A stretch of DNA of 64,000 nucleotides from Squalus acanthias (lineage: Eukaryota). The DNA lies in the NCBI GenBank assembly GCA_030390025.1, contig CM059432.1:41976001-42040000 (forward strand), written 5' to 3'. Numbering within the stretch: the first letter of the stretch is position 1; each line of letters begins with the position of its first letter. Positions 23,695 through 64,000 of this stretch are shown here, piece after piece. The position numbers were made by a program, and so were the translations under genes. The notes beneath the pieces were generated by a model that saw only the letters and a program-made list of their open reading frames with translations, had not been told where the DNA came from and searched no databases.

Positions 23695-26129
23695 GGGGGT
23701 GAAATTGGGCTTGGTAGCTCCTACTTCCTGGGCTCTACAAGGCCCCTTAAATGTCCAAAATGGCATCTGCAGCACGTGCACGCACACACTTCTGACAGGA
23801 CGGCATATTTGTAAAGGGGTTAGCGCGAACGCACCTAACATCCGCCGGCAGCATGACGTTGCTCATTTGACACGAGCGCTGCCATTTTGGAGCTCCACGC
23901 TCCAGCCTACGCCCTCTCTTAACGTTGCACAGCTGAACATGACGTTAAGCAGCAGGAAGGCCCCCACCCAGCCCCCCCCCCCCCCACCAGCACTATTTAA
24001 GGGGGTCATCAAGTACTTACAGGTTAGTTGCTGGTTTATTTCTTCTGACTGTTGCTGCAATTTTACGAGTTTTGGATGCTTCCTATAGTTGGTTAAAGTT
24101 TCACTAGTGTACCGGGAGTGGTGTGGCAGGTGCTGAAGTACATTTTTGGTCACTTAAATGCTTGTGAACAAACCAGTTGCTTCCAGACATGCGTGGTCTA
24201 GTAGGGCTTTCTCTTGGCATTGAGCATGACTGGGAGAATGAGCAGAGCAGGCCAAGCAGCTCGAAGAGGGAGGAGGAAAATGGGGAGAAGAGCTCTCAGC
24301 AGGAGGCCATATCTGCAGAGGGTTTTTAGGGAGCAGATCTGTAGGAGAACAGATTGCTGGAGTGCTGTGATGCCCTGGGAGCCCATTGCACACTGGTACC
24401 TAGAGCCATGATGGCAGCAGTCTGAGCTGCCACTGCAGCACTCAGACATTGGGTGGCTGCGGCTTGTGCTGCAATGGAAGCTGAAACATTGGCCATCAGA
24501 TGCTGCATCATATTTAGTTCCACAGGTGTGCTGCTGGAGGTAGCCACCCATTCCATGTTGGAAAGGATGGGCTCCAAGCTCTGCGCAAAGCCCTGTGCCA
24601 AGTTGGTGCCAGACTCCTCTATGCTCCTTGACATTGAACGCAGGCTTTCTGGCATGCTTTCCAGTGCGCCAAGCATTTGGGTGTGTACACCCATCAGCTT
24701 TCTGCTGTAGCCTGGCCCAACAAAGTCATCACCTGCCTGCAGCAGAACTATTGCTGATCCCACCCTCCAGCGAGCTAGCACCTGCGCTATCCTTCCCCCT
24801 GCCCTGACTGCAGCGCACTTATGCCCAGTGTCTCACCATGTGCAGATCCCTTCTCTATGCTATGGAAATTACACGCAGTGTCAGTATCTAAGCTGGTGGC
24901 TGTGACTATGAAATCGAGTGACAATGTGCCTTCATCTTCACTGTCTTCTTGCTCTTCCTCCACTGCCTGGGCAAATTGCAGTTCTTGGGAATCTGAAAGG
25001 AAAAAGGGACAAGGGTAGGGTTGTGATGAGGCTAGGAGAGGAGAAAGTAAGAAGTGCATGCTTACACCATCAGCAATTCTCAGTCAGAAGAGATTGTGGG
25101 ATGAGGGAGAAGTGAGATGAGAGAAGGAGGATTAGGTTTAGGAATACCCTCACCTTCAATCACTTCAGCCCCGCCAGTGGCCATGTCCTCAGCAATGGCG
25201 CTTCCCATAATGGCCAGCTCTGTCTCCTCCATGGGAGTTAGAACATGCAGGTGCGCCTCTCTCCCTCTGGTTTGTTCCTGCTGCCTCTGCTTGTGTGCCA
25301 CCTTCTCCTGTAAGAGAAAGGGAAGTGTGTCAGTGAGTGTCATGCAATCTGTTTGGGTGATGTGGCTGTCATGGATGAATAGCTGCCAGTATGTGCAAGC
25401 TGTGAGATGTGGGTTTGAGGCTTGCAACAGTGCTAAGTGTGAAGGGGGAGTTGAAGCATATGAATTTTAGGTATGAGTCCTGATTGATAGAAATTGTTGG
25501 TAGGTGAGTGATGGGGGTGTGGTGAATTGAGCAGCGGCTGAGGCTAGTGGTGCAGTTAGTAGGATATGACATTTGAAGATGCATTCACTGATCTTGACCC
25601 TTGTGTGAGATCAGTAAACTTCTTCCTGCACTGCAGCCATGTTCTTGGAGTTATACCCCGGCATTGATCTCCACGGTTATCTCTTGCCACTGCCTTCTGA
25701 GCAAGAGCCTAGAGGGCCTCCTGCCCCCTTCCTGAGGATACAACACATCTCTCCTCCGTTCCACCTCTTCAACCAAGACCTCCAGTGCAACGTTCGAAAA
25801 CCTTGGTTCTTGGTCTCTCCCATGGTCAGCCATTCTTCACTCTTTCCCAGGTCAGATTCACTTGTACAGTGACTCCCAGCACCTATTCCAGCCACAATGC
25901 ACCTCCCCTTTAAGAGGTATAGGCTAGCTTTAAGTAGTGCAGGCTAGCTTTAAGCACTGCTAGCCACTCACGATATTGGGTTCCCTGCTGAGGCATGCAG
26001 CCAATGAACAGCATCGGAGCACAGGCAGCATGAATTTGGTGAACTGCCTGCATTACACTGAAGCGGGTTAATCGTGCATCGCGATCCTTGTGCCCATTTT
26101 TGAGGGGGGGTCTAACCAATTTAACCCCC
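23695..26129. mobile_element. Internally deleted Harbinger
   Basis: TAA|GGGGGTGAAATTGG...CCAATTTAACCCCC|TAA; transposase N-terminal stub (+, to YLQRVFREQ ~24335); Myb pseudogene on minus (exon 1 from ~25833, exon 2 from 25307, exon 3 from 24992). Confidence 0.9.
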
Positions 26130-30512: not shown

Positions 30513-31255
30513 GGGCGAAAAATTGAGTTGCGCCCCCTTTGGGGTGCTAACTTCGCCGGGGCGCTAAAAGTAACGCCCCGGAAAAATTAGCGCCCCCCCA
30601 ACCGAAATTGAGTGGTAGCGCCCCAAGAGGGAAGCGGGTCGCTACTGGAAGCGCCCCGCCTCCCTCATGGGGCGCTGCGAGGGAATATCACGGTTCTACG
30701 TGCCGCGGTATTGCAGGCCTTCCTCCCCTTCTTAAAGGGGAGGGGCCTTGCGCAGCGCGACCCGGGGCCCAGCTGGGCCCCCGGGGATCGGGAGTGCCGG
30801 CAAAAGAGCCTGGCACTCAAGAGAAGTGCCGGGCTCATGGAGCGCAGCCGGCACTCCGCGGGGGTGCGGGTAAGGAGGCCGGGATCGGCAGTGGAGGCAG
30901 GTGCTGGCAGGCAGCCAGCAACAAAAATGGCTCCCGGCACCTCACCTTTAAATAGCGCCGCCCCGGCCGCAGGTAGGGCCCCCTGACCCTGTCGGACATA
31001 GCATCCGGCGGTAAGTCAGGGGGCGCTACCAAAGATTGTGGCCAGGACGCGAGCGGGGCGCTGTGCACGGCGATGACGTCATCACTGGCGGTGCAGCGCC
31101 GCGGGGTGCTAATAGTTAGCGCCGTCGCTAAGCTCCCACTGAATTTTCGCGGGAGACATTGGTGGCGCTGCGCCCAGGCGTGAGTTGCTTTGTGCCCCTG
31201 TTAGCGGCCTCTTAGAGTGCTAACGGGAGGCGCAAAGCAACCGAATTTTTCCCCC
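30513..31255. mobile_element. Harbinger-family MITE (743 bp)
   Basis: TAT|GGGCGAAAAATT...AATTTTTCCCCC|TAT; subterminal TTAGCGCC/GGCGCTAA motifs as in the 58480 element. Confidence 0.9.
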
Positions 31256-37429: not shown

Positions 37430-39260
37430 ACTTTCATATCGGTAGCTGGGTATAAGAATGTCAGCTACTTCCAGACGTGGGAGAGCATTCCCAGCCAGTT
37501 CACCATCAACTAGGAGACCAAAGCAGTGAGCCCGGAACTCCTTCAATGCAGACCTCCAGATCCTGATGTATGAAATGCACACGGTGAGAGCAATAGCTGG
37601 GCTCACAGGGAAGAAAGCCTGTAAATGATGTTTTCCGAGCAATGTACGGAGAGGTGGCAATAGGCACTGAATGTCTCCTCCCTTACTCCCTAGGACACCT
37701 GACCTGATGCGGGCAGAAATCATGAGAAACGAACTGCCACTGTCCCCTTTTCAGTTGGGCACCATGGGACCGCCACCACCCCCACCCCCCCTCCCCCTTC
37801 CCCCCTCCCCCACCCAACACAAATCATCCTGACATTTTAAATGGAATGATGTCTTCATGCACAGCACACCAGCCAATGGCCCTCTAACTCTTCCACCTAC
37901 ATGTGGACACCCCCTCACTAGCCTTACTTACATGTAGCCCTTTACAACTCCATCTTCTCCTGTGACACGGTCCTTCCAGCACTCTTCTGTTACATCGGCT
38001 GTCTGCTACCACCTGGGAGAAATCCTACTAATGCTTGCCTTCAGTTAATGCAGTGAATCTCATTCCAGCAAAAACTTGTTCATAATGCCCAGGAGAGGTA
38101 TGCCACCAACAGGGGAATCTTGGACATCAGAGATATGATGGCATACGAAGAGCGGCTGCTGTAGTGGCACTCCACCTTGACTCTGGGAGACGACGAGGTT
38201 GGTACAGCATTTTCAAGAACCCAACTAGCAGAAAACTTTTAGAGCTGTCTCTATCTCGTCACTCATTCTGGGCACAGCACACCAATTCTTTGCTCATTTC
38301 CTACTCTTCCACAGATCAGTCACTGCAACAGAGGGAAGGGGGAAGGTGAGGGGAACAGGAGGAGGAAGACGAGGGAATAAGCTATCTGTTGGTGGACTTT
38401 GATGATGAAGAGGAAGATGATGCTGTGCCTGCCCCATCTGCTTCTCTCCCTCCCAAGATTGATTTCATTCACTTCATCACATGCTTTCTGTGCTGCTAAC
38501 CAGCCTGGAGCCTTTCACCTCAAGATAGTAGGGTTGTGGAACAATGCACCAGGTAATTCACAGAGCTTGAGGGAACCAGCGTAGTGGGGAGTGGATGAGT
38601 GCTCTTGTTCCCTAGCAGAGGCTATGGAGAAAGTTTCCCTTGACTGCAGAGCTCGGGGTCTCAAACCTATGTGTAGGCAGACGATAGGGGTCACAGCAGA
38701 GTCCATTGCCTCCATATGCAGCAAGAGCAGGGAAACTTTTTCCTCATTGTAGATATAAAAGGAGCATGTGGCAGGTTCATTGCAGTCTGTGACCATTTCC
38801 GTCCCCCATAGAAATCACCTAGCGCATTCTATTTGGAAGCACAAACTGTAGCCCTGGGCGACATGCTCGTGAGAGAGAGAGAGCCCTACATCCTTGGGGC
38901 TAACTTACAGGAAACACTCTTTCAGGCAAACAGAATGTGATGGAAACCATTACATCTGCCATTCCACTGATCAGTTGAACCTAGGATAAGTAACAGTAGC
39001 ATAGTGGACCGACAGTGGACTTGATGCAGCTGACTTTCAGGACAGCAGAACCTGCTAGGCCTGTGGCCTAGACTCTCAGAGGCCGACACAAAAATGTTGC
39101 CCACCACAGGTCCTTCCCAGGAGTTAGCTGACATAACACAAGGGCCATCTCAGTCCTATGAGGCTCTTGTTCTAATTCAGCAGCCAACCATCTCTTACAG
39201 CACTAGCCCCCATGTGGCACCTAGAAGAAGCACCAAGGTAGGTCACAGGAAAGCACTTCT
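37430..39260 (+). pseudogene. Old relic of a Harbinger Myb-like gene
   Basis: Decayed similarity to exon 1 (~37510-37720), exon 2 (KLVHNAQERYATNRG...YEER ~38070-38155), an acidic stretch and a terminal PRRSTKVG. Confidence 0.45.
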
Positions 39261-40430: not shown

Positions 40431-41000
40431 GAACGTTTTTGGCACCTCCGCACACCCCTCTGGTGCATTGAAGCACAAATGTGTAGTAAAATGCATGAGA
40501 ACTTAGGCTCATAGAATGTCTACACACTGTATTAATAATGGAAGAGTTAGGGAGGATGGTCCCAAGCATAGTTGAAGGTTTTGAAATTTGGGAAACAAAG
40601 CCAGGCTGAGGCATTTGGGGAGAAAGCATATTAAAAACAATGGGCTAGAAATTCATTATAACCAAGGAATGGACGGTGCCAGTAGAAAAGTTGGAGAATT
40701 CGCTCCAGGCGCTAACGCTTTAGACTGCACGCAAAATTCATGCTCACTGCTCAAAAAAATGATTGGAGTCCTAATTCAAGTCTTCAAGCCCAAGCTCATT
40801 GGCATCACACTCAAAAGGTGGACCAATATCAGGTGCAGTCTAATCGCAAGCCATGATTGTCACAAGCTTTTTTCAGTACTTAAAGGGGAACTTCACTGTT
40901 GCTGCAGAACCTCATTCTCAGCATTGCTGGCTGTGCAGCTGCCTCAGCAAGCAAAAGCAGGACAAGGAGAAGGAGCCGGAGGACTGAACCAGGTGTACGC

Positions 41001-42860
41001 ATGGCAGATCCACACCCCAGGAAGAGAGCCTGCAGATTCTGTGATGAAGCACTGGAGGCTTTGGTTTTCGCTGTGGAGGGATGGAGGGCGGTGCTGTACC
41101 CGGCAAGTGGCTGGAGGCCCTCGCCACAAGTCTTCCGCACCATGTGGAGGGAGGTAGCCCAGCAGGTCTCGGGCAGCACTGTGGTCCCCAGAACCCACAC
41201 ACAGCGCAGGAAGAAATTTAACGACCTCACTCAGGTGGTCAGTGTGACTGCATGCTTCAACAAATGCTACATACCACCACCTGAACCACACTCTTCACAC
41301 ACTGCCCAAAGCACCACAGCCCCCGCACTCACCCACCAACAATCTCTACCGACCAACACTCACACCCACATCTCACACCTTGCACACAATGACAGCTATT
41401 CAACTATGGGAGGCACATCACCCAAACACACACTTTCCTTTCTCTTGCAGGCCAAGGTGTTTCACAACAGGAGGGAGCAGGAGTGCACACGTGGAAGACA
41501 ATCCGACACCCAACGACTGTCTGAGCTAGAGACTCGAATGCTGCAGATTATTGGGCAGCAGGTTGACCCCCTTGGGGACAACAATGGTATGTTCATCCCT
41601 ACTCCTTCTTCTCACATCCCACTTCCCCCTCACCCCACAAGCGTTTCGCAGTTTCCAGCTAATCATGCTGTATGCGTGCATTTCGCCCTTCCTGCCCCCC
41701 CTCCCCTCACCTTAACCTGACTCTTGTGCCTTTATGCTTTCAGATAATGAGCAAGCACCTGAACAGCCTGTCCCTGAGGGCACTGTGGAGAGCGAGGCGG
41801 GAGAAGAGGAGGAGGAAGAACACACTGCGTCACTGCATATCTCACCCGCAGGCACCAGCTCAGATACTGGCACTACGCGTTCTTTAGAGGCTAGTATAGT
41901 AGCGGGATCTGCGCAGGGTGAGGCACCGGGGACAAGTTGGCTGCAGCAAGGCCAGGGGGAAAAGGTAGCTCAGGGGCCAGCTCCCCGGAGGGCGAGTTCA
42001 CATGTGAGTTCTGCTGCACAGGACTCAGATGAGGACCTTGATGGGGAGGCGTTTAGAAGAAGGGTGAAGGGCATGCCCACGTAGATGATAGATGCAATGG
42101 CAAGGGTGCCCGAGAGCCTCTTGGCAATGGTAAGGAGTGTAGAGGTGTCCGCCTCCAACATTGCACAAAGCTCTGCGCACCCCATGGAACCCATCATTTC
42201 CAGTCTGGAAAGGATGGTAGATTCCCTGAGAGACCGTGGCGACCCAGACCTGATGCCGCGTGTGATGGCAATCTGGCAGCTTCCATTGCAGCTCAGGCGG
42301 AAGCAATGCAACGTCTTAGTTCTGTAATGCAGTCTATGCTTGGTGGCATCCAATCTTAGACTGCTCTCATGCAGTCTCAGCTTGATGCTATGCAATCTCT
42401 GACTGCTGCCATTGTGGCTGGGCCTACCACCGTCGACCGGGGCTTTCAATGTGTCGCAACAGGCCAGCAATCTGTGCTCCAACAGATTGCTAGGGATGCT
42501 GAGGTGCTGCCCCAGGGGCGTGGCAGTGGGTCAGTGGAGCAGGAACCTGCTGTCTTCTCTCAGGATGACAGCATTCCTGCTCCCACCACTGCCACTCCAC
42601 CATTGCCCTTGTCGCTGCCTGTCATCTAACCAGCCCAGACTGCTGCCGCACATGCTGAGGTGGTGCAGTCTACAGCCGGGCCTTCCAGGCCCAGAGCTGG
42701 TCGAGGGTGTCCTGCAAGGCCATCTGAAGTCTCCTGCACGGACACTCAGCAGCCTTCCACCAGCCCTGCTGCAGCCAATGGGCCAACACTTCGTAGGAGC
42801 ACTAGAATAGGCAAAGGCACAGTAACAAGAGGCACTAAGGGATTGCAAAAGGGTGAATAG
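41001..42860 (+). pseudogene. Harbinger Myb/SANT gene, 3 exons (41001-41243, 41451-41586, 41744-42860), disrupted
   Basis: RFCDEALEALVFAV...WREVAQQV...RKKFNDL; GT-AG sites in phases 0 and 1; TAG at 42082 and later frameshifts. Confidence 0.85.
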
Positions 42861-43685
42861 TTAATATTTTTGGTGTAAATATGTGTTCACTGATTTTGGA
42901 TAAATTTATGAATTCACTTACCATTCTTTTGTGGTGTCTGTCATTTCAGCTTTGCGGTGTGAAACGGCCTGCGAGAGGGATGGGATGATGGGGATGTGGT
43001 GAGCAACGGGGGTGTGGGCTTTAAGTCATCCTGGTGTGAGGCTGGAGGTCTGTTTGGAGAAGGTGGCAGAATTCTGTGACCACCTCTTTGGTGAGGTGGA
43101 ACCATCTAATACACTGCTTCTCACTTCATTGAAGATAGGATAAGTGCTCTTGGAATACCCTCGGAGGGTAAGGCCTCCTGGTGAGAGCCCTGATGTCCCT
43201 CCTCATCTCTCTGCACACATGTTCCTGTCATTCTCGCTGCCTATGTTCCCTCCGCTGTAGATCCTGGACGGCGAGGTGGCATGCCAGTACAGCCCCCATT
43301 AATGTTACCAAGTGTAGCAGTTTGATTTTTTGAAGAATAAATGTAGCTACTTTTTAGTTGCCGCAACACTCCTGATACAAAAGAACCTTGAAATTACTGA
43401 ATCAAACTGTTGGAGTATGTGAAACTGAGAAGAAACCACTGAAACTGCACTAACCTGACAGCGAGTCATTAGTGATGATCCCTTTAAATAACATCCTAGG
43501 AGCCGGCTTCCTGGTGCTTCACGCCAGCTCTCCCTGTTGGGGTTTACTCCAGGCGCTAAGGTAGCTGGCGACAATCAATTTAGCAGACCGGGCGGTCAGT
43601 GAGCGTTGCATACTCACTGATGTCATGATCTACCTGGCGTTGACGTTCCCGGTGATAACTCTTACCAGCGGCGCTACGGGGGGCG

Positions 43686-44570
43686 GTTGATACTGAAGAA
43701 GGAAGCTGCAGACTGCAGGAAGATATCAATAAATTGGTCAGGTGGGCAGAACAGTGGCAAATGGAATTCAATCCGGAAAAGTGTGAGGTAATGCATTTGG
43801 GGAGGGCTAACAAGGAAAGGGAATACACATTAGATGGTAGGACACTGAGTAGTGTAGAGGAATAAAGGGAGCTTGGAGTGCATGTCCACAGATCCCTGAA
43901 GGTAGCAGGCCAGGTAGATAAGGTGGTTAAGAAGGCATACGGAATGCTTGCCTTTATAAGTCGTGGCATAGAATACAAGAGCAGGGGGGTTATGCTTCAA
44001 CTGTATAAAACACTAGTTAGGCCTCAGCTAGAGTACTGCGTGCAGTTCTGGTCACCACATTACAGGAAAGATGTGATTGCACTAGAGAGGGTACAGAGGA
44101 GATTTACAAGGATGTTGTCGGGAGTAGAGAATCTTAGCTATGAGGAAAGACTGGATAGGCTGGGTTTGTTTTCCTTGGAACAGAGGAGGCTGAGGTGTCT
44201 AAAATTATGAGGGGCCTAGATAAAGTGGATAGAAAGGACCTATTTCCCTTAGCAGAGGGGTCAAAAACCAGGGGGCACAGATTTAAAGTAATTGGTAGAA
44301 GGTTTAGAGGGGATTTGAGGGGAAATTTCTTCACCCAGAGGGTTATGGGGGTCTGGAACTCACTGCCTGAAAGGGTGGTAGAGGCAGAAACCCTAACCAC
44401 ATTTAAAAAGTACTTGGATGTGCACTTGGGATGCTGTAACCTGCAGGGCTACGGACCAAGAGCTGGGAAGTGGGATTAGGCTGGATAGCTCTTTGTTGGC
44501 CGGCGCGGACACGATTGCCGAAATGGCCTCCTTCCGTGCTGTAACTTTCTATGATTCTATGATTCTATGA
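43686..44570 (+). mobile_element. 5'-truncated CR1
   Basis: LVRPQLEYCVQFWSP; (attctatg)n tail. Confidence 0.9.
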
Positions 44571-44949
44571 TTTGGTGTGCGGAGCTGGATTCGCCTCGCC
44601 CCAGCGATACTGCTCTCGCGCCCCTTTAGCGCCATCTGCTGGCGCTAACGGGAGGTGCTAAGGTTACGAATTTTTCCCCCAATAAGTTAAAATAATTTCA
44701 AAAGTGACTGTAATTTGCAGCATATCTCTAAAAGAATGATGCTAAACTGGGTTCATTTTTGTTCTTAGTAATCCTTTTCCAGTGGAAAAAAACTTGATTT
44801 TCTGTGCTCCAAGTGATGATCAGCTTCTGAACAACACTCCACATAGCGTTTCTTTTGGCCACATCCACAATAACACCATATAATTTCCTTCAGGTGAAAG
44901 TATCTGAACTGGTGCCGAGAAGCTAAGAACCAATTGATACAGGAAGTGA

Positions 44950-47900
44950 GTTGGAAGGGATTGGGACAGAGGAGGTCTCTGGAGAAACTCATGGGTGGGC
45001 TGCAGATTGCCATCTCTCTCCCATCATCATCCTCCACGTGCTCATCATAGTTGATAAGAAGGTAGTTGGGTCTCTGTTCCTCTTCCTCCTCCTCATTATC
45101 TTCATCTTCCTCCTCCTGTGCCCTTTGTTGTTATGGTAGAGCAGCAGGAAAGAAGAGTAGAAGTTAAGAATGCTTGAGCATTATTCTCTGGTGATTAAGG
45201 AGCCAAAGAAAGGAGTGGGAGGTTATAAATGTGTGGTGCTTGATAGGGATGACAAGATGACAGTGTAGATGTTCAATCACTCTCTGGCAAAAGCAATATG
45301 GAGCCAACTTCACCATCTCCTACTGCAAAAGCAGAGTTCCTTCCTATGAGCTCCATGGCCTTCTCCTCATAGGATAAAGGGTTAAAGGTTCCAATGCCCC
45401 CTCCGGTGGCTTGATTTGGTGGTCATTGCATACCATTTTCTCATGCAAGAAAATTCAGTATGAGGGGAAGTTTAGCATTTGAGGAGTGTGCCAAGTAGCA
45501 TGGGGGAACTAAAAAAATGTGGGGATAGTAGCCTGGAAGTGGAGGAAGAGGTTTTAGGATTGCGGTTGTAAGTAATTGCATTTAATGTGGCTGGATAGCC
45601 ATAGTGAAAGATAAGAACATAAGAAATAGGAGCAGGAGTAGGCCATTCGGCCCTTCGAGCCTGCTCCGCCATTCAATGAGATCATGGCTGATCTTCTGCC
45701 TCAACTCCATTCACCGGCCCTATCGCCATATCCCTTGATGCCCTTACTAGTCAGAAATCTATCGACTTCTGTTTTGAATATACCCAATGACTGAGCCTCC
45801 ACAGCCCTCTGGGGTAGAGAATTCCAAAGATTCACCACCCTCTGTGTGAAGAAATTTCTTCTCATCTCAGTCCTGAATGGCCTACCCTTTATCCTGAGGC
45901 TGTGGCCCCTGATTCTAGACTCCCCAGCCAAGGAAAACATTCTCCCAGCATCCACCCTATCAAGCCCTGTAATAATTTTGTATGCTTCAATGAGATCCCC
46001 TCTCATTCTTCTGAATTCAAGAGAATACAGGCCTAGTTTACTCAATCTCTTCTCATACGACAGTCCTGCCATCCCAGGAATCAATCTCGTGAACCTTCGT
46101 TGCACTCCCTCTATGGCAAGTATATCCTTCCTTAGGTAAGGAGACCAAAATTGTACACAGTACTCCAGGTGTGGTCTCACCAAGGCCCTATATAATTGGA
46201 GCAAGACTTCTTTACTCCTGTACTCAAATCCTCTTGTAATGAAGACCAGCATACCATTTGCCTTCCTAATGGCTTGCTGCACCTGCGCATTTACTTTCAG
46301 TGACTCATGTACAAGGACACCCAGGTCCCTTTGAGCGCCTGCATTCCCCAATCTTTCACCATTTAGGAAATACTCTGCCTTTCTGTTTTTTCGACCAAAG
46401 TGGATAACTTCACATTTATCCACATTATATTCCACCTGCCATGTTCTCGCCCACTCACTGAGCCTGTCGAGATCCCCCTGAAGCCTCTTCACATCCTCTT
46501 CACAACTGACACTGCCACCTAGCTTTGTATCATCAGCAAATTTGGAAATGTTACATTTAGTCCCCTCATCCAAATCATTGATATAGATTGTGAATAGCTG
46601 GGGCCCAAGCACCGATCCTTGCAGCACCCCACTAGTCACAGCCTGCCATCCTGAAAAAGACCTGTTTATCCCTACTGTTTGTTTTCTGTCTATTAACCAA
46701 TTTTCAATCCATGCTAGTATATTACCCCCAATTCCATGCGCCCTAATTTTGTTCACCAACCTCTTGTGTGGGACCTTATCGAAGGCCTTCTGAAAATCCA
46801 GATACACCACATCTACCGGTTCCCCTTTGTCTACTCCACTAGTTACATCCTCAAAGAACTCCAATAGGTTTGTCAAACAGGATTTCCCTTTCATAAATCC
46901 ACGTTGACTCTGCCCAATCTTACTATTAGTTTCTAAGTGCCTAGTTATTGCATCCTTTATAATAGATTCCAGCAGTTTTCCAACTACTGATGTGAGGCTC
47001 CCCGTTTTCTCTCTCCCTCCTTTCTTAAATAGCGGGATTACATTTGCTATCCTCCAATCTGCAGGAATCGTTCCAGAATCTATAGAATTTTGGAAGATGA
47101 CAACCAATGCGTCCACTATCCCAATGGCCACCTCTTTCAAAACCCTAGGATGTAGGTCATCCGGTCCTTGGGATTTATCGACTTTTAGTCCCATTAATTT
47201 TGCTAGTACTGTTTTTTTACTAATAATAATTTCTTTAAGTTCCTCATTCTCGCCACACCCTTGGTTTTCTTGTATTTCTGGGAGGTTTTTTGTGTCTTCC
47301 TCCGTGAAGACAGAAACAAAGTATTTATTTAATCTCTCTGCCATTTCCTCATTCCCCATTATAAATTCTCCCGTCTCTGACTGTAAAGGACCTACATTTA
47401 CCATCGCCAGTCTTTTCCTTTTCACATACCTATAGAAGCTTTTACAATCCGTTTTTATATTTTTCGCTAGTTTGTGCTCATATTCCATTTTCCCTTTCTT
47501 TATCAATTTCTTGGTCCCCCTTTGCTGATTTCTAAAAAGATCCCAATCCTCAGGCTGACCGCTTTTTCTGGCAACTTTATAAGCTTCCTCCTTTGACTTA
47601 ATACTAGCTTTAATTTCTTTTGTTAGCCATGGTTGGATCACTTTTCCTTTTGGGTTTTTATGCCCTAGAGGAATATATGTTTGTTGCAAATTATGCATTA
47701 TTTCCTTGAATGTTAGCCATTGTATGTCCACCTTCATACCTTTTAGTGTAGTCTCCCAATCTACCTTCTTCATGGCCAACTTGTCCCTCATACCCTTGTA
47801 ATTTCCTCTGTTTAGATTGAAGACCTTAGTTTCAGATTGGACTACATCACTCTCAAACTTCATGTAAAATTCAATCATATTATGGTCACTTGTCCCTAAA

Positions 47901-49235
47901 GGCCCCTTTACCACAAGATTATTGATTAGCCCTTTCTCATTACACAGTACCAGATCCAGAATAGCCTGTTCCCTGGTTGGTTCCTCCACATACTGATCCA
48001 GGAAACCATCTCGCATGCATTCCAAGAATTCATCCTCCACACCATTAGTGGTAATTTGATTTGCCCAGTCAACATGTAGATTAAAGTCCCCATGATTACC
48101 ATATTGCCCTTGTGACATGCACTTCTAATTTCTTGATTGATACTGTGCCCTACATTACCACTACTGTTTGGTGGCCTATACACAACTCCCACCAATGTTT
48201 TCCTCCCTTTGCTGTTTCTTAGCTCCACCCAAACTGATTCTAGTTCTACATCACAATCTGCCGAGCCAAGATCTTTTATCTCTACCGTACCGATCTCATC
48301 CCTTATTAACAGTGCTACGCCACCTCTTTTTCTTTTTTGTCTGTCCTTCCTAAATGTTGAGTACCCTGGAACATTCAGTTCCCAGCTTTGGTTACCCTGC
48401 AACCATGTCTCTGTAATGGCAATTACATCATACCCATTTACTTCTATTTGTGCAATTAATTCATCCACCTTGTTGCGAATGCTACGTGCATTTAGATAAA
48501 GTGCCTTCAACTTTGCCTGTTTAATATTTTTCTGCACTTTGACCCTCTTTACTGTTGGCCTTTGTTTCTGCTCCCTACTAGTTTTGCTGACTACTTTTCT
48601 AACTTGCACTTCCAGCTTTGTTTCTCTCCATTCTAGGCCCACACTTAGGTTCCCAGCCCCCTGACAAACTAATTTAAATCCTTCCCAACAGCACTAGCAA
48701 ACCCCCCTGTGAGGATATTGGTCCCGGTTCAGCTGAGGTGTAATCCGTCCAGCTTGTACAGGTCACACCTTCCCCAGAATCAGTCCCAATGCCTCAGGAA
48801 TTTAAATCCCTCCCTCCTACACCATCTCTCCAGCCACACGTTCATCTGGTCTATTCTATTTCTGCTCTCGCTAGCACGTGGCACTGGGAGTAATGCCAAG
48901 TTAGAGCCCCCCTTAACCAGAGTGCTTTGTGAAGGATTAGTTGTACAAGTGTTGCTTTAAGAGGGTGAAGAGTATGCTGGTGTCCAGGGTGGCCAAGGAA
49001 TAAAAGGAACAGTGTGATACCTTGCCTGCCCTGGTGAGGTGAGGTGGTTGAACCTTTTATGACACTGCCCTACAGTCCTGGGGGTGAGGTAATTGGCACT
49101 CATTGCTAGTGCCACCTCCCTCCTGCTGGCATGGACCCCCAGGTATCTGTGCCTTCTTATTTTAATCTCCTCCAGGAGGGCTTTGAGGTCAGAGTCAGAA
49201 AAGTTCTGGGTTCTTCTTCCCTGGATTGGTGCCAT
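44950..49235 (-). pseudogene. Old Harbinger Myb-gene relic split by a CR1
   Basis: Exon 1 ~49025-49235 (NFSDSDLKALLEEI...PRTVGQCHKRFNHL); exon 2 ~45300-45445 (ATGGG...LSYEEKAMELIG); acidic exon 3 start ~45140. Confidence 0.65.
45611..48895 (-). mobile_element. Young CR1 with near-complete ORF2 (APE + RT)
   Basis: ORFs 47926-48642 and 45701-48118 join by one frameshift; YLDFQKAFDKVPH, FADDTKL; end of ORF1 at ~48670-48895. Confidence 0.95.
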
Positions 49236-54132: not shown

Positions 54133-54703
54133 GCTCTTCCTGTCTTTTATTGTTGGTGGCATTTTTGAACTACGCATTCTGAGAGAGAGAGGGCGAGACT
54201 TCTGGAGAGATTCAACGTTGTGTGAAGGAGTTTTGGGTACTGAGCAGCACTTTGCAGGTTCATTTTGATTTGCCATTCCTTGTATCGATTTAGCAGAGAC
54301 TGTGGGAGCTGCACTCTGAGCTCTTTGCCTGGTACTCTCCATTGTTCTTTCCAGCACATTTGATGTGCAAGTCTCTCCAGGCCGAGATTCAAGGCTGCAA
54401 TGAACAGGATGTGGATGGAAAGCAAGATTAACCATCCCCTTTAAGAACTGGCCCGTGCCATTGTGTGTGTGTTCCATTGCTGACTGACATTACATGAGCT
54501 TCGCCACCGCTCTGAGTTAGCGCCTCACTCCTTGGCCTTTGCGCCTTAAGACAGGTGTGCAGCGCCTGATTTAGCGCTCCACTCACCTCCCGGGGCGGTA
54601 AAAGTGAAGTTTCCAGTCAGTGCCGATAATTAGCGCCAGGCACTAATATTTGCGTCCAGACGATATTTGCGCCCCAAATGGGGCGCGACCTAATTTTTAC
54701 CCC
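54133..54703. mobile_element. One-end-deleted copy of the 62922-63814 Harbinger MITE
   Basis: Near-identical reverse complement of 62922-63491; ends AATTTTTACCCC|AAA, with AAA also at 54130-54132. Confidence 0.92.
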
Positions 54704-55842: not shown

Positions 55843-56153
55843 GACTTACCCTTTAATTAATTTAAATCAAATTAAATCAAATCAATACCACAAATTACAC
55901 TACAATTAAATGATATAGTCAAGGCCCCTCCTCTTAGCACTCCCCGCTACACAACTGAGACCGTAGAAACTATAACCACAAAATTAAGACCTTCTAAACT
56001 TTATAAACTATTAACCTTAACTGTCAAACTATAGAGTAGTATAAATACTCACCTGGCCGTACTCACCCAATCAGCTGCTTCCTCTTGCCCGCATCACTTT
56101 TTGAATCTTGACATGGTTCTGGAACGCCGCCGCCGGTCTGCGAGATTGGTAAG

Positions 56154-56433
56154 CCTCTGAAAAAAGCCCGCGAAAGTGAGTTTAAATACTCACTGTACCG
56201 TCACTCTCTCCGCTCGCGACACCGGCCTCTGAAAAAAGCCCGCGAAAGTGAGTTTAAATACTCACTGTACCGCCGCTCTCTGCTCATCCCGACACCGGCC
56301 TCTGAAAAAAGCCCGCAAAAGTGAGTTTAAATACTCACTGTACCGTCACTCTCTCCGCTCGCGACACCGGCCTCTGAAAAAAGCCCGCGAAAGTGAGTTT
56401 AAATACTCACTGTACCGTCGCTCTCTCCGCTCC
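56154..56433 (-). repeat. 72-73-bp tandem monomers x~4 in the CR1 5' UTR
   Basis: Units start at 56154, 56226, 56299 and 56371. Confidence 0.95.
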
Positions 56434-56611
56434 CAACACTGGTGAAGTTATCAAGTGAATGAGCCAAGCACTGTTCCTTCCTTACCTTGTGTTATTTTTC
56501 AGTAGTCTTCTGTTGAAGTGTGCAGGTAGAACTGTCTTTTCACAGGCTGCACTTTAGAGTGAACACCAACGTCTACTCCAATGAGTATGCAAATGAGCTT
56601 ACCCACAAACT

Positions 56612-58479
56612 CTTAGGAGATCAAAGAGGGGCCATGAAATAACACCGGCGAGCAAAATAAAGGAAAATCCTAAGATGTTTTATAAGTATATTAAGGGTAA
56701 GAGGATAACTAGGGAAAAAATAGGGCCCATTAGGGACAAAAGTGGCAATCTGTGTGTGGAGCCGGAAGATGTAGGTGGGGTTCTAAATGAATTTTTTGCA
56801 TCTGTTTTCACTATGGAGAAGGACGATGCAGACATAAAATTAGGGCAGGGAGACTGTGATATACTCGAACATTTTAACATCGAGAGGGAGGAGGTATTGG
56901 CGGTTTTAGCAGGTCTGAAAATGGATAAATCCCCAGGTCCGGACGAAATGTATCCCAGGCTGCTGTGTGAGGCAAAGGAGGAGATTGCGGGGGCTCTAAC
57001 ACATATATTCAGAACCTCTCTGGCCACAGGGGATGTGCCAGAGGACTGGAGAACCGCTAATGTAGTACCATTATTCAAGAAAGGGAGTAGGGAAAAACCG
57101 GGTAACTACAGGCCAGTGAGCCTAACATCAGTGGTAGGAAAATTATTGGAAAAAATTCTGAGGGACAAAATCAGTCTCCACTTGGAGAAGCAAGGATTAA
57201 TCAGGGTTAGCCAACATGGCTTTGTCAAGGGAAGATCATGTCTGACTAATTTGATTGAATTTTTTCAGGGGGTGACTAGGTGTGTGGGTGAGGGTAACGC
57301 AGTGGATGTGGTATACAGTAAGGCCTTCGATAAAGTCCCGCACAGGAAACTGGTCAAGAAGGTAAGAGCCCATGGAATCCAGGGTGCCTTGGCACATTGG
57401 ATACAAAACTGGCTCAGTGGCAGAAGGCAGAGGGTGGTGGTCGAAGGTTGTTTTTGTGACTGGAAGCCTGTGGCCAGTGGGTTACCACAGGGATCGGTGC
57501 TGGGTCCCTTGCTGTTTGTGGTCTACATTAACGACTTGGATATGAATGTAAAAGGTATGATCAGTAAGTTCGCGGATGATACAAAAATTGGTAGGGTGGT
57601 AAATAGCGAGGAGGGTAGCCTCAGTCTGCAGGACGATATAGATGGGTTGGTCAGATGGGCGGAACAGTGGCAAATGGAACTTAATCCGGAAAAGTGCGAG
57701 GTGATGCACTTTGGAGGGACTAACAAGGCAAGGGAATACACAATGAATGGTAAGACCCTAGGCAAGACGGAGGGTCAGAGGGATCTTGGTGTGCAAGTAT
57801 ACAAATCCCTGAAGGCGGCGGAACAGGTGGATAAGGTGGTAAAAAAGGCATATGGGATACTTGCATTCATTAGCCGAGGCATAGAATATAAGAGCAAGGA
57901 GGTTATGATGGAGCTGTATAAAACACTGGTTAGGCCACATCTGGAATACTGTGTGCAGTTCTGGTCACCACACTACAGGAAGGATGTGATCGCTTTGGAG
58001 AGGGTGCAGAGGAGATTCACCAGAATGTTACCCGGGATGGAGTGCTTCAGCTATGAAGAGAGACTGGGCAGATTGGGTTTGTTTTCCTTGGAGCAGAGGA
58101 GGCTGAGGGGGACATGATTGAGGTGTACAAAATTATGAGGGGCATAGATAGGATGGATACTAAGGAGCTTTTTCCCTTAGTAGAGGGGTCTATAACAAGG
58201 GGGCATAGATTCAAGGTAAAGGGCGGGAGGGTTAGAAGGGATTTGAGAAAGAACTTTTTCACCCAGAGGGTGGTTGGAGTCTGGAACTCACTGCCTGAAA
58301 GGGTTGTGGAGGCAGGAACCCTCACAACATTCAAGAAGCATTTGGATGAGCACTTGAAATGCCATAGCATACAAGGCTACGGACCAAATGCTGGAATATG
58401 GGATTAGATTAGACAGGGCTTGATGGCCGGCGCGGACACGATGGGCCGAAGGGCCTCTATCCGTGCTGTATAACTCTAT
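56612..58479 (+). mobile_element. 5'-truncated young CR1; tail continues at 62911-62921 and 63815-63830
   Basis: RT ORF 56675-58117 plus frameshifted 58114-58407; (ACTCTATG)n tail. Confidence 0.95.
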
Positions 58480-58651
58480 GGGGTAAAAATTCAGTTGGTT
58501 GCGCCTCCCGTTAGCGCCTTAAATGGGCGCTAATGGGGCGTTAAGGCGCTAACGCCCGGGCGCAGCGCTGTTTGCGCCGCTCGAGAACTTAACTTGAGAT
58601 TGTGCGGCGGCGCTAAAACTTACCGCTGCGACCACCTGCGCGCGCAGATTG

Positions 58652-58797
58652 TGACGTCATTCCGTGGTGCAACGCCCTTGGGGCGCCCCGGAGCGGAAAT
58701 TGAGTGGCGCCCCCTGCCTTACCGCCTGGCGCTTCCAACGACCGGAAGACTGGAACGTTATCAATCGGTGTGGGGCTGGGGGGGGGCGCTATTTAAA
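58652..58797 (+). promoter_or_regulatory. Putative transposase promoter: CRE plus TATA
   Basis: TGACGTCA at 58652-58659 and TATTTAAA at 58790-58797; possible 5' UTR intron 58917-58987. Confidence 0.55.
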
Positions 58798-58992
58798 GGG
58801 GGCCTCTTCCTGTCTTTTTCTGTGGTCGACATTTATGCACCACTCGTTCTGAGAGAGAGAGAGAGATTCGGAGAGAGAGAGAGAGAGACTTCTACATTGA
58901 CTCAACGCTTTGTGAGGTAGTTTTGCCTAGTTCATCCTAACTTTGCTGCTACTTTCGTTGCTGTACCTCATTACTTTTCTGGCAAAGAGAAT

Positions 58993-60153
58993 ATGGGGGC
59001 TGCAATGATTGGGGGCGTCGTCCTGCTCCAGCTCAATCGGAGGAGAGTGAGACGCAGACAGAGAGTGGCAATGATGGCCAGACGGAGGAGGCCCATCAGG
59101 CGCATGTACAGGAGAGCTTACCCTCCCAGGGTATATCGTGAACAGCTCTCCTACATCCACATGTCCGAGGAGCTGTGTTTGCGAAGGCTGCGATTCAGCA
59201 AGGAGGTGGTCACTGAGCTCTGCCACCTGCTGCAGCCAGATCTGCAGCCTCAGCTGAGGTCCAGGACGTCTCTGTCGGTGGCAGTGAAGGTCACAGTGGC
59301 TTTGAACTTCTACGCCACTGGCTCATTCCAAGCTGCTGTTGGGGACCTCGCCAATATCTCCCAGTTTGCGGTGCATCGCTGCATCCGGCAGGTCACCAAT
59401 GCCCTCTTCACAAGGAGACGAGACTTCATCTCCTTCCCTATGACCCCAGACAAGCAGCATGACCGTGCTATGGGCTTTGCGAGGGTAGCGGGCTTCCCCA
59501 TGGTGCAGGGCGCCATTGACTGCACGCATGTGGCTTTGCGTGCTCCGCGAGAGAATGCAGAGGAGTTCCGGAACAGAAAGGGGTTCCATTCCTTGAATGT
59601 GCAGTTGGTCTGTGACCACAGACAGGTGATTCTCGTTGTCAATGCCCACTATCCGGGCAGCTGCCACGATGCTTTCATCCTGCGCCAGAGTACTGTGGCA
59701 GAAATTTTCGAGGCACCGCATCAGCCAGTTGGTTGGCTTCTGGGGGACAAGGGGTACGCATTGAGCACCTGGCTGATGACACCGCTCCGTGCACCAAACA
59801 CCCCTGCTGAGCTGCGGTACCAGGAAAGCCAACAAGCAACGAGGAACATTATTGAGCGCACAATCGGCGTGCTCAAACAACGATTCCGCTGTCTGGACCA
59901 TTCCGGAGGAGCCCTGCAGTACTCGCCTGAGCAAGTTTCCAAATTCGTAGTGGTGTGCTGCATGTTGCACAACATGGCAATCCTCAGGACGCAGCCAATG
60001 CCACCAGGCCTTGCAGCACCACAAGAGGAGGAGGAGGAAGAGGAGGAACAGGCCGAGGACGATGATCAGCAGCAGCACCAAGGCAGGAGGGCGGCCCACA
60101 ATGGTCAAACTGCAAGGGCCGTCCGTCAACGACTAATAGCAAGCCGCTTCTAG
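58993..60153 (+). CDS. Harbinger DDE transposase (HARBI1-like), 386 aa, intact
   Basis: GAIDCTHV, NRKGFHSLNVQLVCD, PGSCHD, LLGDKGY, RNIIERTIGVLKQRFRCL, CCMLHN. Confidence 0.96.
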   Translation: MGAAMIGGVVLLQLNRRRVRRRQRVAMMARRRRPIRRMYRRAYPPRVYREQLSYIHMSEELCLRRLRFSKEVVTELCHLLQPDLQPQLRSRTSLSVAVKVTVALNFYATGSFQAAVGDLANISQFAVHRCIRQVTNALFTRRRDFISFPMTPDKQHDRAMGFARVAGFPMVQGAIDCTHVALRAPRENAEEFRNRKGFHSLNVQLVCDHRQVILVVNAHYPGSCHDAFILRQSTVAEIFEAPHQPVGWLLGDKGYALSTWLMTPLRAPNTPAELRYQESQQATRNIIERTIGVLKQRFRCLDHSGGALQYSPEQVSKFVVVCCMLHNMAILRTQPMPPGLAAPQEEEEEEEEQAEDDDQQQHQGRRAAHNGQTARAVRQRLIASRF

Positions 60154-60447
60154 GGCCCCTGCCAGTGCAACAAACACGAATCAACCCAGCACGCAACCCC
60201 TAAGCCGGCCAAGGCACCAATAATTCCAACCACCAGCCATGTATATTTTGAATACAGAAACTTATTTATTGTACAAACTCTGTGTGTGTCAATTCCTCAT
60301 GACAAACTCATAGAAATAAACACAAAAAAACAGTCAATAACATAACTGGTTCTCACAACCTGGAGATAATGTCCAAAACACTAAACAAAAGTTGGGCCAT
60401 GAACCTCAGCCTTTAATTATAAAATGACCAGCATTTTGGCACACCTC

Positions 60448-62553
60448 CTACTTTTTGCCCTTCGAGGGTGATCTCCTTCCCTTGCGCACTTCCCCCCTTC
60501 TAACCCTACTGCTCCTCCGTAATGGGACCTCAGTGGCTGCAGCAAGGCTGGTGGAAGGCTGCTGCTTGTCAGACCCTGACACTGCAGATGCCCCTGAAGG
60601 ACGGCCTCGACCACTTCTGGGCCTGGAGGGCCCGGCTGCAGACTGCACCAACTCTGCATGGGCGGCAGCAGTCTGTCCTACAGGCGGTGGCAAGTGCAGT
60701 GGAGAAGTGACAGTGTTGGCAGCAGGAATGCTGTCATCGTGAGAGAGGACAGCAACTCCCTGCTCGCCCGACACACTGGCACTCCCACGGGGCAGCACTT
60801 CAGCATCCGGAGCAATTTGCCGGAGAACAGATTGCTGGCCTGCTGCGGCGCGGTGACAGCCCCGGGGACATGTGCACGAACCATCGAGGATGGCAGCAGT
60901 CAGTGCTCGCGTGGCCTCAATCTGAGTCTGCATGAGAGCAGGCTCAGATGGGTTCCTGGCAGCCAGTGACTGAATTGCAGCAGTAAGCTTTAGTGTGGCA
61001 TCCGCCTGTGCTACAGCGAAGTGCTCCACACTCCTTGCCAGTGCCTCAATGCATTCGGGCACCCTTCCCACTGCACCCATGAGCTCAGTGTGCATGCCCA
61101 CCGCCTGGCTGTTCATTTCTGCAATCAGCCGCTCCTCCTCTGCGTCCATTGCATTAGGAGTGTCTGGCATACTCTCCCTCTGGGGAGAAGGCTCCCGTTC
61201 TTCCCTCCCCCCCCCATGGCGTTGCTGCAGCCCGCTGGGTCCTGGAACTTCACCATCATCAGCCCCTTCCCCCCTGCTCCCCCGTTCTTCCCTCCCCCCC
61301 CCCATGGCGTTGCTGCAGCCCGCTGGGTCCTGGAACTTCACCATCATCAGCCCCTTCCCCCCTGCTCCCCCGTTCTTCCCTCCCCCCCCAATGGCGTTGC
61401 TGCAGCCCGCTGGGTCCTGGAACTTCACCATCATCAGCCCCTTCCCCCCTGCTCCCCTCCGGGGAAGGCGTGTTCCCAGTGTGGCCATGGGCTTCCTCGG
61501 GAGAGGGTGGCACTGATGCTCCGGCTTCCTCTTCCTCCTCAGCTGCAGCATCACTCCCAGTGGCAGCTTCAGGGACCATCTCCTCAGCTGGTGAATCACC
61601 ATCTGAAAGCAGGGAGGTACAAGAGTGGCTTTAGCGTGAGGACAGGGTGGCAGTAAGGGAGGAATAAGTGCAGCGAGTTAGCAAGTTGGAGTGAAAGTGT
61701 CAAAGGCTGGTATTGTGAGGGACAAGTGGAAGGACAGAGGACAAAAAGGTGATGACCTTACCATTGCTGTCCACAACGGGGTCGGCGTCTCCAGTGGCGA
61801 CGGGACCGATCACCCGGCTTGCCACAATCCTGTGGACGCGCTCCTCCAGATCGCTGAGGGGTTGCAGCTGAAGCCGCCCTCCACCCGTCCGTTGCTGCTG
61901 TCTCCGATTATGAGCCAGCTTAGCCTGCAAGAAAAAGGACAGCATCTGAGTCAATATACAGCCATGGTCTTGCCTGATGTGCCTCCCATAGGTGAATAGC
62001 CCTTACAATATGCAGCCATGGTCTTGCCTGATGTGCCTCCCATAGGTGAATAGCCCTTACAATATGCAGCCATGGTCTTGCCTGATGTGCCTCCCATAGG
62101 TGAATAGCCCTTACAATATGCAGCCATGGTCTTGCCTGATGTGCCTCCCATAGGTGAATAGCCCTTACTGTATGCAAAGTGTGGAATGTGTGTGTGTGTT
62201 TGATGAAAGGGCCATAGGTGTTGCATGAGTGTTGTGCATTGGGGTTTTAAGACCCTCTGGCCATAGAGTGAGGTTGAGATGGAGGGATGGAGAGGTATTG
62301 AGAAAAAGCCACTCACCCTGACGACCCGAGTGAGGTCGTTGAACTTTTTGCGGCACTGGACATGGGTCCTGGGCACCATGCTCCTGGAGGAGACGCTCTG
62401 AGCCACCTCCCTCCACACTCTTCTGAACTCGCGTGGCAAAGGCCTCCTGCCACTCTCCGGGAACAGCATGCATCGTCTGCGCTCCACTGCGTCAACCAGA
62501 GCATCCAAGGCCCGCTCGGTGAAGCGATGAGCGCGTTCTCTCACCCTTTCCAT
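60448..62553 (-). CDS. Harbinger Myb/SANT-like protein, join(62553-62317, 61924-61762, 61602-60448); one +1 homopolymer frameshift
   Basis: RFTERALDALVDAV...WREVAQSV...QCRKKFNDL; AGG|gtgagt, gcag|GCT, G|gtaagg, tcag|AT; about 517 aa if the extra C at ~61294-61303 is removed. Confidence 0.88.
61194..61457 (-). repeat. 87-bp coding tandem repeat x3
   Basis: Units start at 61194, 61281 and 61369; encode REERGSRGEGADDGEVPGPSGLQQRHGGG. Confidence 0.95.
61952..62168 (-). repeat. 54-bp tandem repeat x4 in Myb intron 1
   Basis: Units start at 61952, 62006, 62060 and 62114. Confidence 0.95.
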
Positions 62554-62921
62554 GCTTGGCAGCAAAATGGATTACAGGTCTCTCCAGGCTGAGATTCAAG
62601 GCTGCAATGAGCAGGGTGTGGCTGGGGAGCAAGTGGCCCCCCCCGCTTTAAGAAGTGTCCGGCGCCAGTGTGTCTGTGTTCCCTCGCTAACTGGCAGCAG
62701 CTGCGCTGCGCTTGTGCGCTGAGGTAGCGCCTCACTCCTAGGCCTTTGCGCCTTAAGAGAGGTGTGCAGCGCCTAATTTAGCGCTCCACTCACCTCCCGG
62801 GGCGGTAAAAGTGAAGTTTCCTGTCAGTGCCGATAATTAGCGCCAGGCGCTAATATTTGCGCGCGGACGATATTTGCGCCCCAAATGGGGCGCGACCTAA
62901 TTTCTACCCCTATGACTCTAT

Positions 62922-63814
62922 GGGGGAAAAATTAGGTCGCGCCCCATTTGGGGCGCAAATATCGTCTGGACGCAAATATTAGCGCCTGGCGCTAATTATC
63001 GGCACTGACTGGAAACTTCACTTTTACCGCCCCGGGAGGTGAGTGGAGCGCTAAATCAGGCGCTGCACACCTGTCTTAAGGCACAAAGGCCAAGGAGTGA
63101 GGCGCTACCTCAGAGCGCTGGCGAAGCTCATGTAATGTCAGTCAGCAATGGAACACACACACAATGGCACGGGCCAGTTCTTAAAGGGGATGGTTAATCT
63201 TGCTTTCCATCCACATCCTGTTCATTGCAGCCTTGAATCTCGGCCTGGAGAGACTTGCACATCAAATGTGCTGGAAAGAACAATGGAGAGTACCAGGCAA
63301 AGAGCTCAGAGTGCAGCTCCCACAGTCTCTGCTAAATCGATACAAGGAATGGCAAATCAAAATGAACCTGCAAAGTGCTGCTCAGTACCCAAAACTCCTT
63401 CACACAACGTTGAATCTCTCCAGAAGTCTCTCCCTCTCGCTCTCAGAATGCGTAGTTCAAAAATGCCACCAACAATAAAAGACAGGAAGAGGCCCCCTTT
63501 AAATAGCGCCCCCCCCAGCCCCACAGCGATTGATAGCGTTCCAGTCTTCTGGTCGTTGGATGCGCCAGGCGGTAAGGCAGGGGGCGCCACTCAATTTCTG
63601 CTCCGGGGCGCCACAAGGGCGTTGCACCATGGAATGACGTCACAATCTGCGCGCGCAGGTGGTCGCAGCGGTAAAGTTTAGCGCCGCCGCACAATCTCTA
63701 GTTAAGTTCCCGAGCGGCGCAAACATCGCTGCGCCCGGGCGTTAGTGGCTTTGCGCCCCATTAGCGCCCTCTTAAGGCGCTAACGGGAGGCGCAACCAAC
63801 TGAATTTTTACCCC
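62922..63814. mobile_element. Non-autonomous Harbinger (893 bp), inverted relative to 58480-62910
   Basis: TAT|GGGGGAAAAATTAGG...AATTTTTACCCC|TAT; both ends closely match the adjacent element. Confidence 0.95.
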
Positions 63815-64000
63815 TATGACTCTATAACTACTTCTCCAGACACCAGTGGGCGCAAACCTTTTTTCATTGGTGTAACAGTGGTGCAACTCACTGCATGGAA
63901 ATTCAACCCCATGATGTTTAGTGATAGAAACTGTGAACATAAGATTGTGTTACATTGATCGCATTGGAGGATGACAGGAAGGCACAGATAAGATCCAAGT

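Follow-up and report, generated by a model that had tools for sequence, protein, structure and literature searches.

The 64,000-nucleotide stretch of Squalus acanthias DNA analysed here, called the window below (assembly GCA_030390025.1, contig CM059432.1, positions 41,976,001 to 42,040,000 of the forward strand), contains a Harbinger DNA transposon of 4,431 bp at 58480–62910. Its terminal inverted repeats (TIRs) start with GGGG, TAT stands on each side of it as a target-site duplication (TSD), and it carries two convergently arranged genes: one for the transposase and one, of three exons, for a partner protein with a Myb/SANT-like domain. An original prediction, made from the letters of the sequence, had described the element as near-intact, perhaps recently active, and equipped with a long conserved C-terminal module in its Myb partner. 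We read it as an elasmobranch Harbinger whose transposase is intact and whose Myb helper is frameshifted; by analogy with described systems, the predicted helices of intact family members likely dock the transposase, and their basic tail is likely a nuclear import signal. Our rough probability for this reading is 0.7.

Structure and transcription of the element

The features of the element, in order of position, are as follows.

58477..58479, left TSD, TAT, lying within the 8-bp microsatellite at the tail of a long interspersed element (LINE)
58480..58494, plus strand, left TIR, 12 of 15 bases equal to the right end
58480..58800, left subterminal region, six AGCGCC motifs, TATA-like sequence at 58790–58797
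58993..60153, plus strand, DDE transposase, single intact exon of 386 amino acids (aa), no stops
60265..60320, convergent polyadenylation-signal hexamers, minus strand at 60265 and plus strand at 60315
60448..61602, minus strand, coding part of Myb exon 3 with the acidic linker, the helical module and the tail, carrying a frameshift in this copy
60451..60813, minus strand, predicted disordered tail, with GRGRP at 60612–60598, LRRSSR at 60522–60505 and a basic end
60814..61152, minus strand, predicted helical module, residues 16–128 of a 249-aa piece, block pLDDT (predicted local distance difference test) 83–97 over residues 21–100
61194..61457, three tandem copies of an 87/88-bp unit, with a shift of frame caused by the 88-bp one, premature stop at 61259–61261
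61762..61924, minus strand, Myb exon 2, TGGG helix, 163 nt, phase 1
61952..62176, tandem array of 54 bp x 4.2 in intron 1
62317..62553, minus strand, Myb exon 1, Myb/SANT-like domain, phase 0
62600..62910, right subterminal region, four AGCGCC motifs, right TIR at 62896–62910
62911..62913, right TSD, TAT

The transposase matches DDE_Tnp_4 (PF13359; E=3e-38, 131 bits against a cut-off of 24.8), the HARBI1 type, retains the acidic triad in the motifs GAID (D176), GD (D252) and ER (E288), and has a ratio of nonsynonymous to synonymous substitution rates (dN/dS) of 0.22. A PDB sequence search with it gave no match, and a metagenome scan for its relatives gave 595 pattern matches, of which none was confirmed. 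Exon 1 of the partner gene matches Myb_DNA-bind_5 (PF13873; E=1e-9, 38.3 bits against a cut-off of 21.7), with dN/dS of 0.18, and the 0/1 phase of exon 2 recurs in two diverged copies of the window, at 41k (136 nt) and 24k (154 nt). The TIRs, the TAT duplication, the intact transposase, the three-exon partner gene and the recurrent exon phases of the original prediction are all borne out. Since the polyadenylation hexamers are convergent, the 3' ends of the two transcripts would overlap. The DDE transposase, the Myb/SANT protein, the short TIRs, the length of about 4 kb and the 3-bp TSD agree in every respect with the PIF/Harbinger (PHIS) superfamily of the two-ORF (open reading frame) Myb type, for which short TIRs with G or A as the first base and a length of about 4 kb have been given (PMC4482050).

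The AGCGCC motif is concentrated at the two ends. Six copies at the left end compare with a mean of 0.68 in shuffled sequences (0 of 1000 shuffles reach six) and four at the right end with a mean of 0.64 (4 of 1000 reach four), and there is none in the 3,571 internal bases of the element. These terminal repeats are the obvious candidate binding sites for the Myb protein.

Reads of four of the 24 listed sequencing runs were mapped onto 61370–61951, a stretch of 582 bases that avoids the tandem arrays and spans the joint between exons 2 and 3. Three of these runs, from two studies and two organism codes, are putative RNA runs, the label RNA being a guess. All three contain the joint 61602/61762, in which 159 nt with GT-AG borders on the minus strand are skipped, at depths of 367, 264 and 622, the shorter side measuring 18–24 bases; no such joint occurs in the DNA run. 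Because this single GT-AG joint occurs in the putative RNA runs only, exon 3 is spliced to exon 2, a joint whose absence would have told against the original prediction. Intron-spanning contigs occur beside the spliced ones at similar depth. Some putative RNA contigs exit the element at the exon-2 acceptor (61924–61927) into foreign sequence, and this acceptor may trap host transcripts.

In the copy at hand the partner gene is broken. The middle unit of the triplication has a run of 10 C where the other two have nine, the units being otherwise 98% alike; this 88-bp unit places the C-terminal module out of frame, and the spliced Myb ORF, as assembled, stops at 247 aa, before the helix. The partner gene is thus not near-intact, as had been claimed, and the element as assembled lacks the two intact ORFs of an autonomous element. 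A loose contig end of 255 nt in run X19 (and a shorter one in X17) runs from the first unit directly into a match at 61178–61207 (28 of 30 bases). Since the X19 end is three bases shorter, it stays in frame, and transcribed family members therefore carry one unit; the single-unit family protein is about 459 aa long. The copy described here would yield just the transposase and depend on a Myb partner acting in trans; the same would hold for the non-autonomous element adjoining it. Supply of Harbinger functions in trans has been shown (PMC13668399). The break amounts to one base in a homopolymer of 9–10 bases between nearly identical units, and an assembly error there would make the copy fully autonomous, with a linker longer by two units. 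We consider this doubtful: none of the listed loose ends of RNA and DNA contigs, which are single-unit (59 others being unlisted), contains the triplication, and the copy is further marked by a second array and by substitutions nearly private to it (61691, 61847).

The C-terminal module and its relatives

All of the C-terminal motifs named in the original prediction are present within 60451–61197. AlphaFold models the helical part as two helices, at residues 4–70 and 75–117, with a mean pLDDT of 80; when the tail is included, residues 129–249 are modelled without secondary structure and at low confidence. The module is thus predicted as long helices followed by a disordered tail. Large hydrophobic residues make up 0.50 of the heptad a/d positions of helix 1 versus 0.19 of the others, a modest bias. 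The residues past the acidic linker are accordingly predicted to fold into long amphipathic helices that probably make up a coiled coil. The module matches no Pfam family, and the tail is without any Pfam match at E<=10. A Foldseek search with the helix model found no match at E<=0.001, and a PDB profile search gave weak, generic coiled-coil matches, the best of them to a designed helical barrel (E=2.5e-4). The first matches in the ESM Atlas (0.82 and 0.77) were taken as leads only, and the plant trihelix cluster (0.77) among them was not used as evidence.

The GRGRP motif had been called AT-hook-like, which holds for its RGRP core only: the strict pattern with basic flanks occurs in 0 of 19 sequences, and Pfam AT_hook gives no match. 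Among the eight sequences that cover the site, RGRP is intact in three, decayed in three and lost in two. The core is ancestral: this element retains both of its CpG-bearing Arg codons, which have decayed in dead copies.

Relatives were sought with phmmer over 1.84 billion representative sequences, which gave 11 matches. Nine of these are shark gene models (five from Pristiophorus, two each from Heptranchias and Heterodontus); the other two (P0005, P0012) were dropped as bacterial-type repeat proteins. In P0002 the Myb domain, TGGG helix, acidic linker, helix and tail all stand in one chain. The RefSeq models P0002, P0003, P0006 and P0009 have the same module as the element, with 30–43% identity in the helical part and 41–56% in the tail. 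They differ from it in being labelled 'uncharacterized' or 'myb-related transcription factor, partner of profilin-like' (MYPOP-like) rather than transposon and in having a helix about 47 aa longer, and several are tail-less or fused to host exons. With a leave-one-out helix profile, a ray protein (P0001) gives a weak match (34.6 bits; E=7e-4 for a database of size 1e9). Word-index searches, of limited sensitivity, returned one of 158 candidates for exon 1, six of 7996 for alignment A2 (all from Pristiophorus) and none of 8000 for the C-terminal piece. Trees of the start of the helix (98/97) and of the tail (95/89) agree in joining the element to the Pristiophorus P0002 group. In the window itself, parts of the module recur in diverged copies at 1–797, about 24340–25820 and 41019–42860, as had been proposed.

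Six Myb models (P0009, P0013–P0016 and P0001) keep the helix and lack the tail, and in three of P0009 and P0013–P0016 the helix stands behind three Myb units. The Pristiophorus models P0013–P0017 and P0009 have two or three tandem Myb units, one helical module and no tail; they are possibly a domesticated cluster or merged tandem copies. In P0004 a PML-like RING/B-box/coiled-coil protein is joined to exons 2–3, and in P0011 part of the module is joined to a VSIG1-like protein.

The original prediction did not recognise this layout in described families. Comparison by eye, with no alignment run, to the zebrafish and coelacanth entries of Supplementary Data S2 of PMC9179366 does not support that view. 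The partner of zebrafish Harbinger-3_DR has a Myb domain, a TGGG helix, an acidic linker and a terminal heptad helix, and this element is like the shark one in its two ORFs, partner layout and transposase motifs; its partner, of about 220 aa, ends at the helix, whereas in the shark family protein, of about 459 aa, the helix is longer and a tail of 120 aa follows. The Myb-like proteins of coelacanth Harbinger-1_LC, -3_LC and -4_LC have a Myb domain, TGGG helix, long linker, long heptad helix and low-complexity tail. In Harbinger-1_LC and -3_LC the heptad helix is longer than the zebrafish one and the tail ends in RGRGR/RGRP, the GRGRPRGRP end of -3_LC being more canonical than that of the shark element; in several further entries, too, the end is a helical, heptad-like stretch. 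The layout is a known one, the ordinary arrangement of a Harbinger partner, here in a shark-specific sequence. The RGRP-type motif may have gone unremarked in main texts. We found no literature that combines Harbinger, AT-hook, Myb and coiled coil, and Repbase and Dfam may already describe such tails.

Transposase docking and the alternatives

Several Harbinger-type Myb proteins bind the transposase, or a protein derived from it, through their C-terminal half: the plant proteins HDP2 (aa 151–259; PMC5339849), ALP2 (aa 171–261) and, from rice, Ping ORF1 (aa 292–465), with vertebrate NAIF1 cited likewise (PMC7282668). The shark partner resembles them as a Harbinger Myb protein, their binding being shown and its own being proposed by analogy. 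HDP2, ALP2 and NAIF1 are domesticated, unlike the shark element, and no sequence similarity to the shark module was seen in any of the four, no comparison aimed at it having been made. ALP2 has a predicted C-terminal coiled coil (PMC7282668). Nuclear import of the zebrafish transposase requires the Myb partner (PMC9392472, PMC2836001; second-hand for Sinzelle 2008).

From these parallels the following scheme can be drawn. The element has two convergent genes, exon 2 is spliced to exon 3, and the transcribed copies have a single-unit, in-frame linker. The Myb domain would bind the (T)AGCGCC repeats at both ends. Beyond the acidic linker come the long amphipathic helices, predicted and probably coiled, and the partner's C-terminal half would hold the N-terminal half of the transposase through the exon-2 or the exon-3 helix. 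The RR-rich end would bring transposase and partner into the nucleus, and RGRP may add a weak, dispensable minor-groove contact. Insertion leaves 3-bp A/T-rich duplications, as the footprints in the window show.

Five observations weigh against transposase docking and import as the roles of the module. The helix of this element is about 47 residues shorter than those of its relatives, and a loss of 47 aa in this family means that the helix tolerates large change. The coiled coil of ALP2 lies outside the blocks common to plant Harbinger Mybs (Velanis et al., PMC7282668), and Ping ORF1 in yeast left the localisation of the transposase unaltered (PMC9392472, PMC2836001). No match to the module outside elasmobranchs was found by phmmer or by the word-index searches, within their limited sensitivity. 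Finally, nine estimates of dN/dS for the module among window copies are all below 1 (0.42–0.84), compared with 0.18 in Myb exon 1 and 0.22 in the transposase, and only two of the nine intervals exclude 1, the other seven including or touching it. These values come from tblastn pieces that cross frameshifts, with decayed copies and misalignment biasing them upward, and we prefer a codon-position test on nucleotide alignments. The conservation claimed earlier thus stands as sharing across elasmobranch families, and not as clear selection on the protein.

The tail behaves unusually in the codon-position test. At 60502–60813 it is equally conserved at every codon position across three copies, and we found no explanation for this. 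Over 102 codons, positions 1+2 are as alike as position 3 in three of three pairs (e.g. 163/204 versus 80/102; Fisher p 0.69–0.88), while the transposase shows the usual drop at the third position (p=9e-11). Third positions are more alike in the tail (80/102) than in exon 1 (37/74; p=1e-4). The contrast between tail and transposase is significant overall (p=0.003) and not at CpG-free sites, which are few (p=0.24).

The tail may thus be constant as DNA or RNA, through a cis element in the exon or old conversion between families, with the peptide nearly free; this would be compatible with docking by the helices, and we hold it a real but minority possibility. Besides the flat codon-position profile and the similar third positions, it would account for the likeness to the element dropping to about 0.43 beyond the stop, with intron 2 near shuffle level, and for folding z-scores of -1.3 to -3.1. 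Set against it are the small sample (three copies, two of them decayed), the loss of significance without CpG-prone sites, an unfavourable covariation term in RNAalifold (+4.37), the lack of any Rfam match in the tail region, and a stop position common to relatives. The congruent trees of helix start and tail make a recent swap of tails between families unlikely, and the adjoining non-autonomous element lacks the region, which is therefore not needed in cis for mobility. A broader version, in which Myb exon 3 holds a tract of 300–450 nt kept as nucleic acid (an embedded cis element or repeated conversion) over an RGRP tail that is disordered, while the exon-2 acceptor of the family also takes in host exons and seeds chimeric and multi-Myb host genes in sharks, strikes us as speculative and unlikely.

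Another alternative, after the original prediction, gives the module functions new to this clade: the helix would self-oligomerise, and the AT-hook-like motif would tether the protein to chromatin or guide target choice. The absence of a Pfam family, the long heptad-type helix with its weak PDB profile matches to coiled-coil chains, the ancestral RGRP and two insertions in one microsatellite (see below), which hint at target preference, all lean that way. The motif, however, fails the AT-hook tests and is intact in three of eight sequences only, six helix-keeping models do without the tail, the tail has no codon-position signature, and the similar coelacanth tails (by eye) would deny such functions to this clade in particular even if they were real. 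Tethering thus keeps weak support, and we regard the proposal as a whole as improbable. That exon 3 past the linker lies outside the working protein and merely drifts is very improbable: the seven dN/dS intervals that reach 1 would suit it, but the transcripts are spliced and in frame, gene models from a ray and from three genera of sharks keep the frame open, the helical model is confident and all nine point estimates lie below 1.

Transposase docking by the partner's helices accordingly remains our preferred reading. It shows no new mechanism, and its significance is modest; the family lends itself well to finding out by which of its C-terminal helices a vertebrate Harbinger partner docks the transposase, and many 'uncharacterized' or MYPOP-like shark gene models are explained as transposon-derived. 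Elasmobranch Harbingers seem little described: we found them in passing mentions only (PMC12498223), and none was detected in the elephant shark.

Family size, target sites and neighbours

About 55% of the letters of the DNA run gave 3,074 contigs of the family, of which 708 are alike at 99% or more, and the family is therefore large. The intact transposase, the spliced transcripts and the many near-identical copies argue, on the sequences, for a young family. Recent activity, as originally suggested, holds in these sequence terms only, with the reservations that the Myb ORF of this copy is broken and that shark mutation rates are very low: at the measured 7e-10 per generation (PMC10587355), even 0.5% divergence amounts to millions of generations. 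Expansion and expression of Harbinger elements have been described in a newt (PMC5741667). In twenty runs, which bear seven organism codes (two rows being unlabelled), 0.43–0.88 of the words are present; for 58900–62600, runs of seven organism codes contain 0.53 or more of the 31-base words, which could reflect close relatives, slow divergence or horizontal spread.

Recognised Harbinger pieces cover about 15.2 kb, or 24%, of the window (1–2100, 23695–26129, 30513–31255, 40642–44680, 54134–54703 and 58480–63814), with weaker Myb remnants at 49038–49214, 38072–38158 and 45294–45413. The TSD is 3 bp long in all five paired Harbinger elements of the window (TAT, TAT, TAT, AAT, TAA); for a sixth left end, at 19368, no partner end was found in the window. 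The narrow PIF/Harbinger group of Han et al. 2015 has the TSD 5'-TWA-3', which TAT does not match and which one of the five window elements fits. Neither does TAT fit the TSDs of NuwaI (CWG), NuwaII (TNA in C..G context) or Pangu (ANT), whereas the AAT of the element at 40642–44680, alone of the five, fits ANT (criteria from PMC4482050).

The element lies between two other mobile elements:

56597..58476, plus strand, host LINE, RVT_1 ORF at 56597–58117, 3' tail microsatellite the target of both insertions
62922..63814, minus strand, non-autonomous sister element of the miniature inverted-repeat type (MITE), 893 bp, inverted, 86–91% alike to both ends of the element

The MITE starts 11 bases past the element, at the next microsatellite unit, and has its own TAT duplication. 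Two Harbinger insertions thus stand at successive TAT sites of one LINE-tail microsatellite (58469–58479, 62911–62921, 63815–63828), possibly through local target preference or local hopping. A truncated MITE at 54134–54703 is identical to 62922–63491 at 563 of 570 positions. At 62575–63257 the element's right end and the inverted MITE make up a palindrome, with arms of 336 bp (87%) and a spacer of 11 nt; transcription of it, should this occur, would produce a long hairpin directed against the Myb promoter region. Rfam microRNA matches at 62872–62960 were rejected, being under the gathering scores and reflecting the palindrome. The reverse transcriptase frame of the LINE (56597–58117) is open over 506 aa, and upstream of the LINE lies a tandem array of 72 bp x 4 at 56153–56439.

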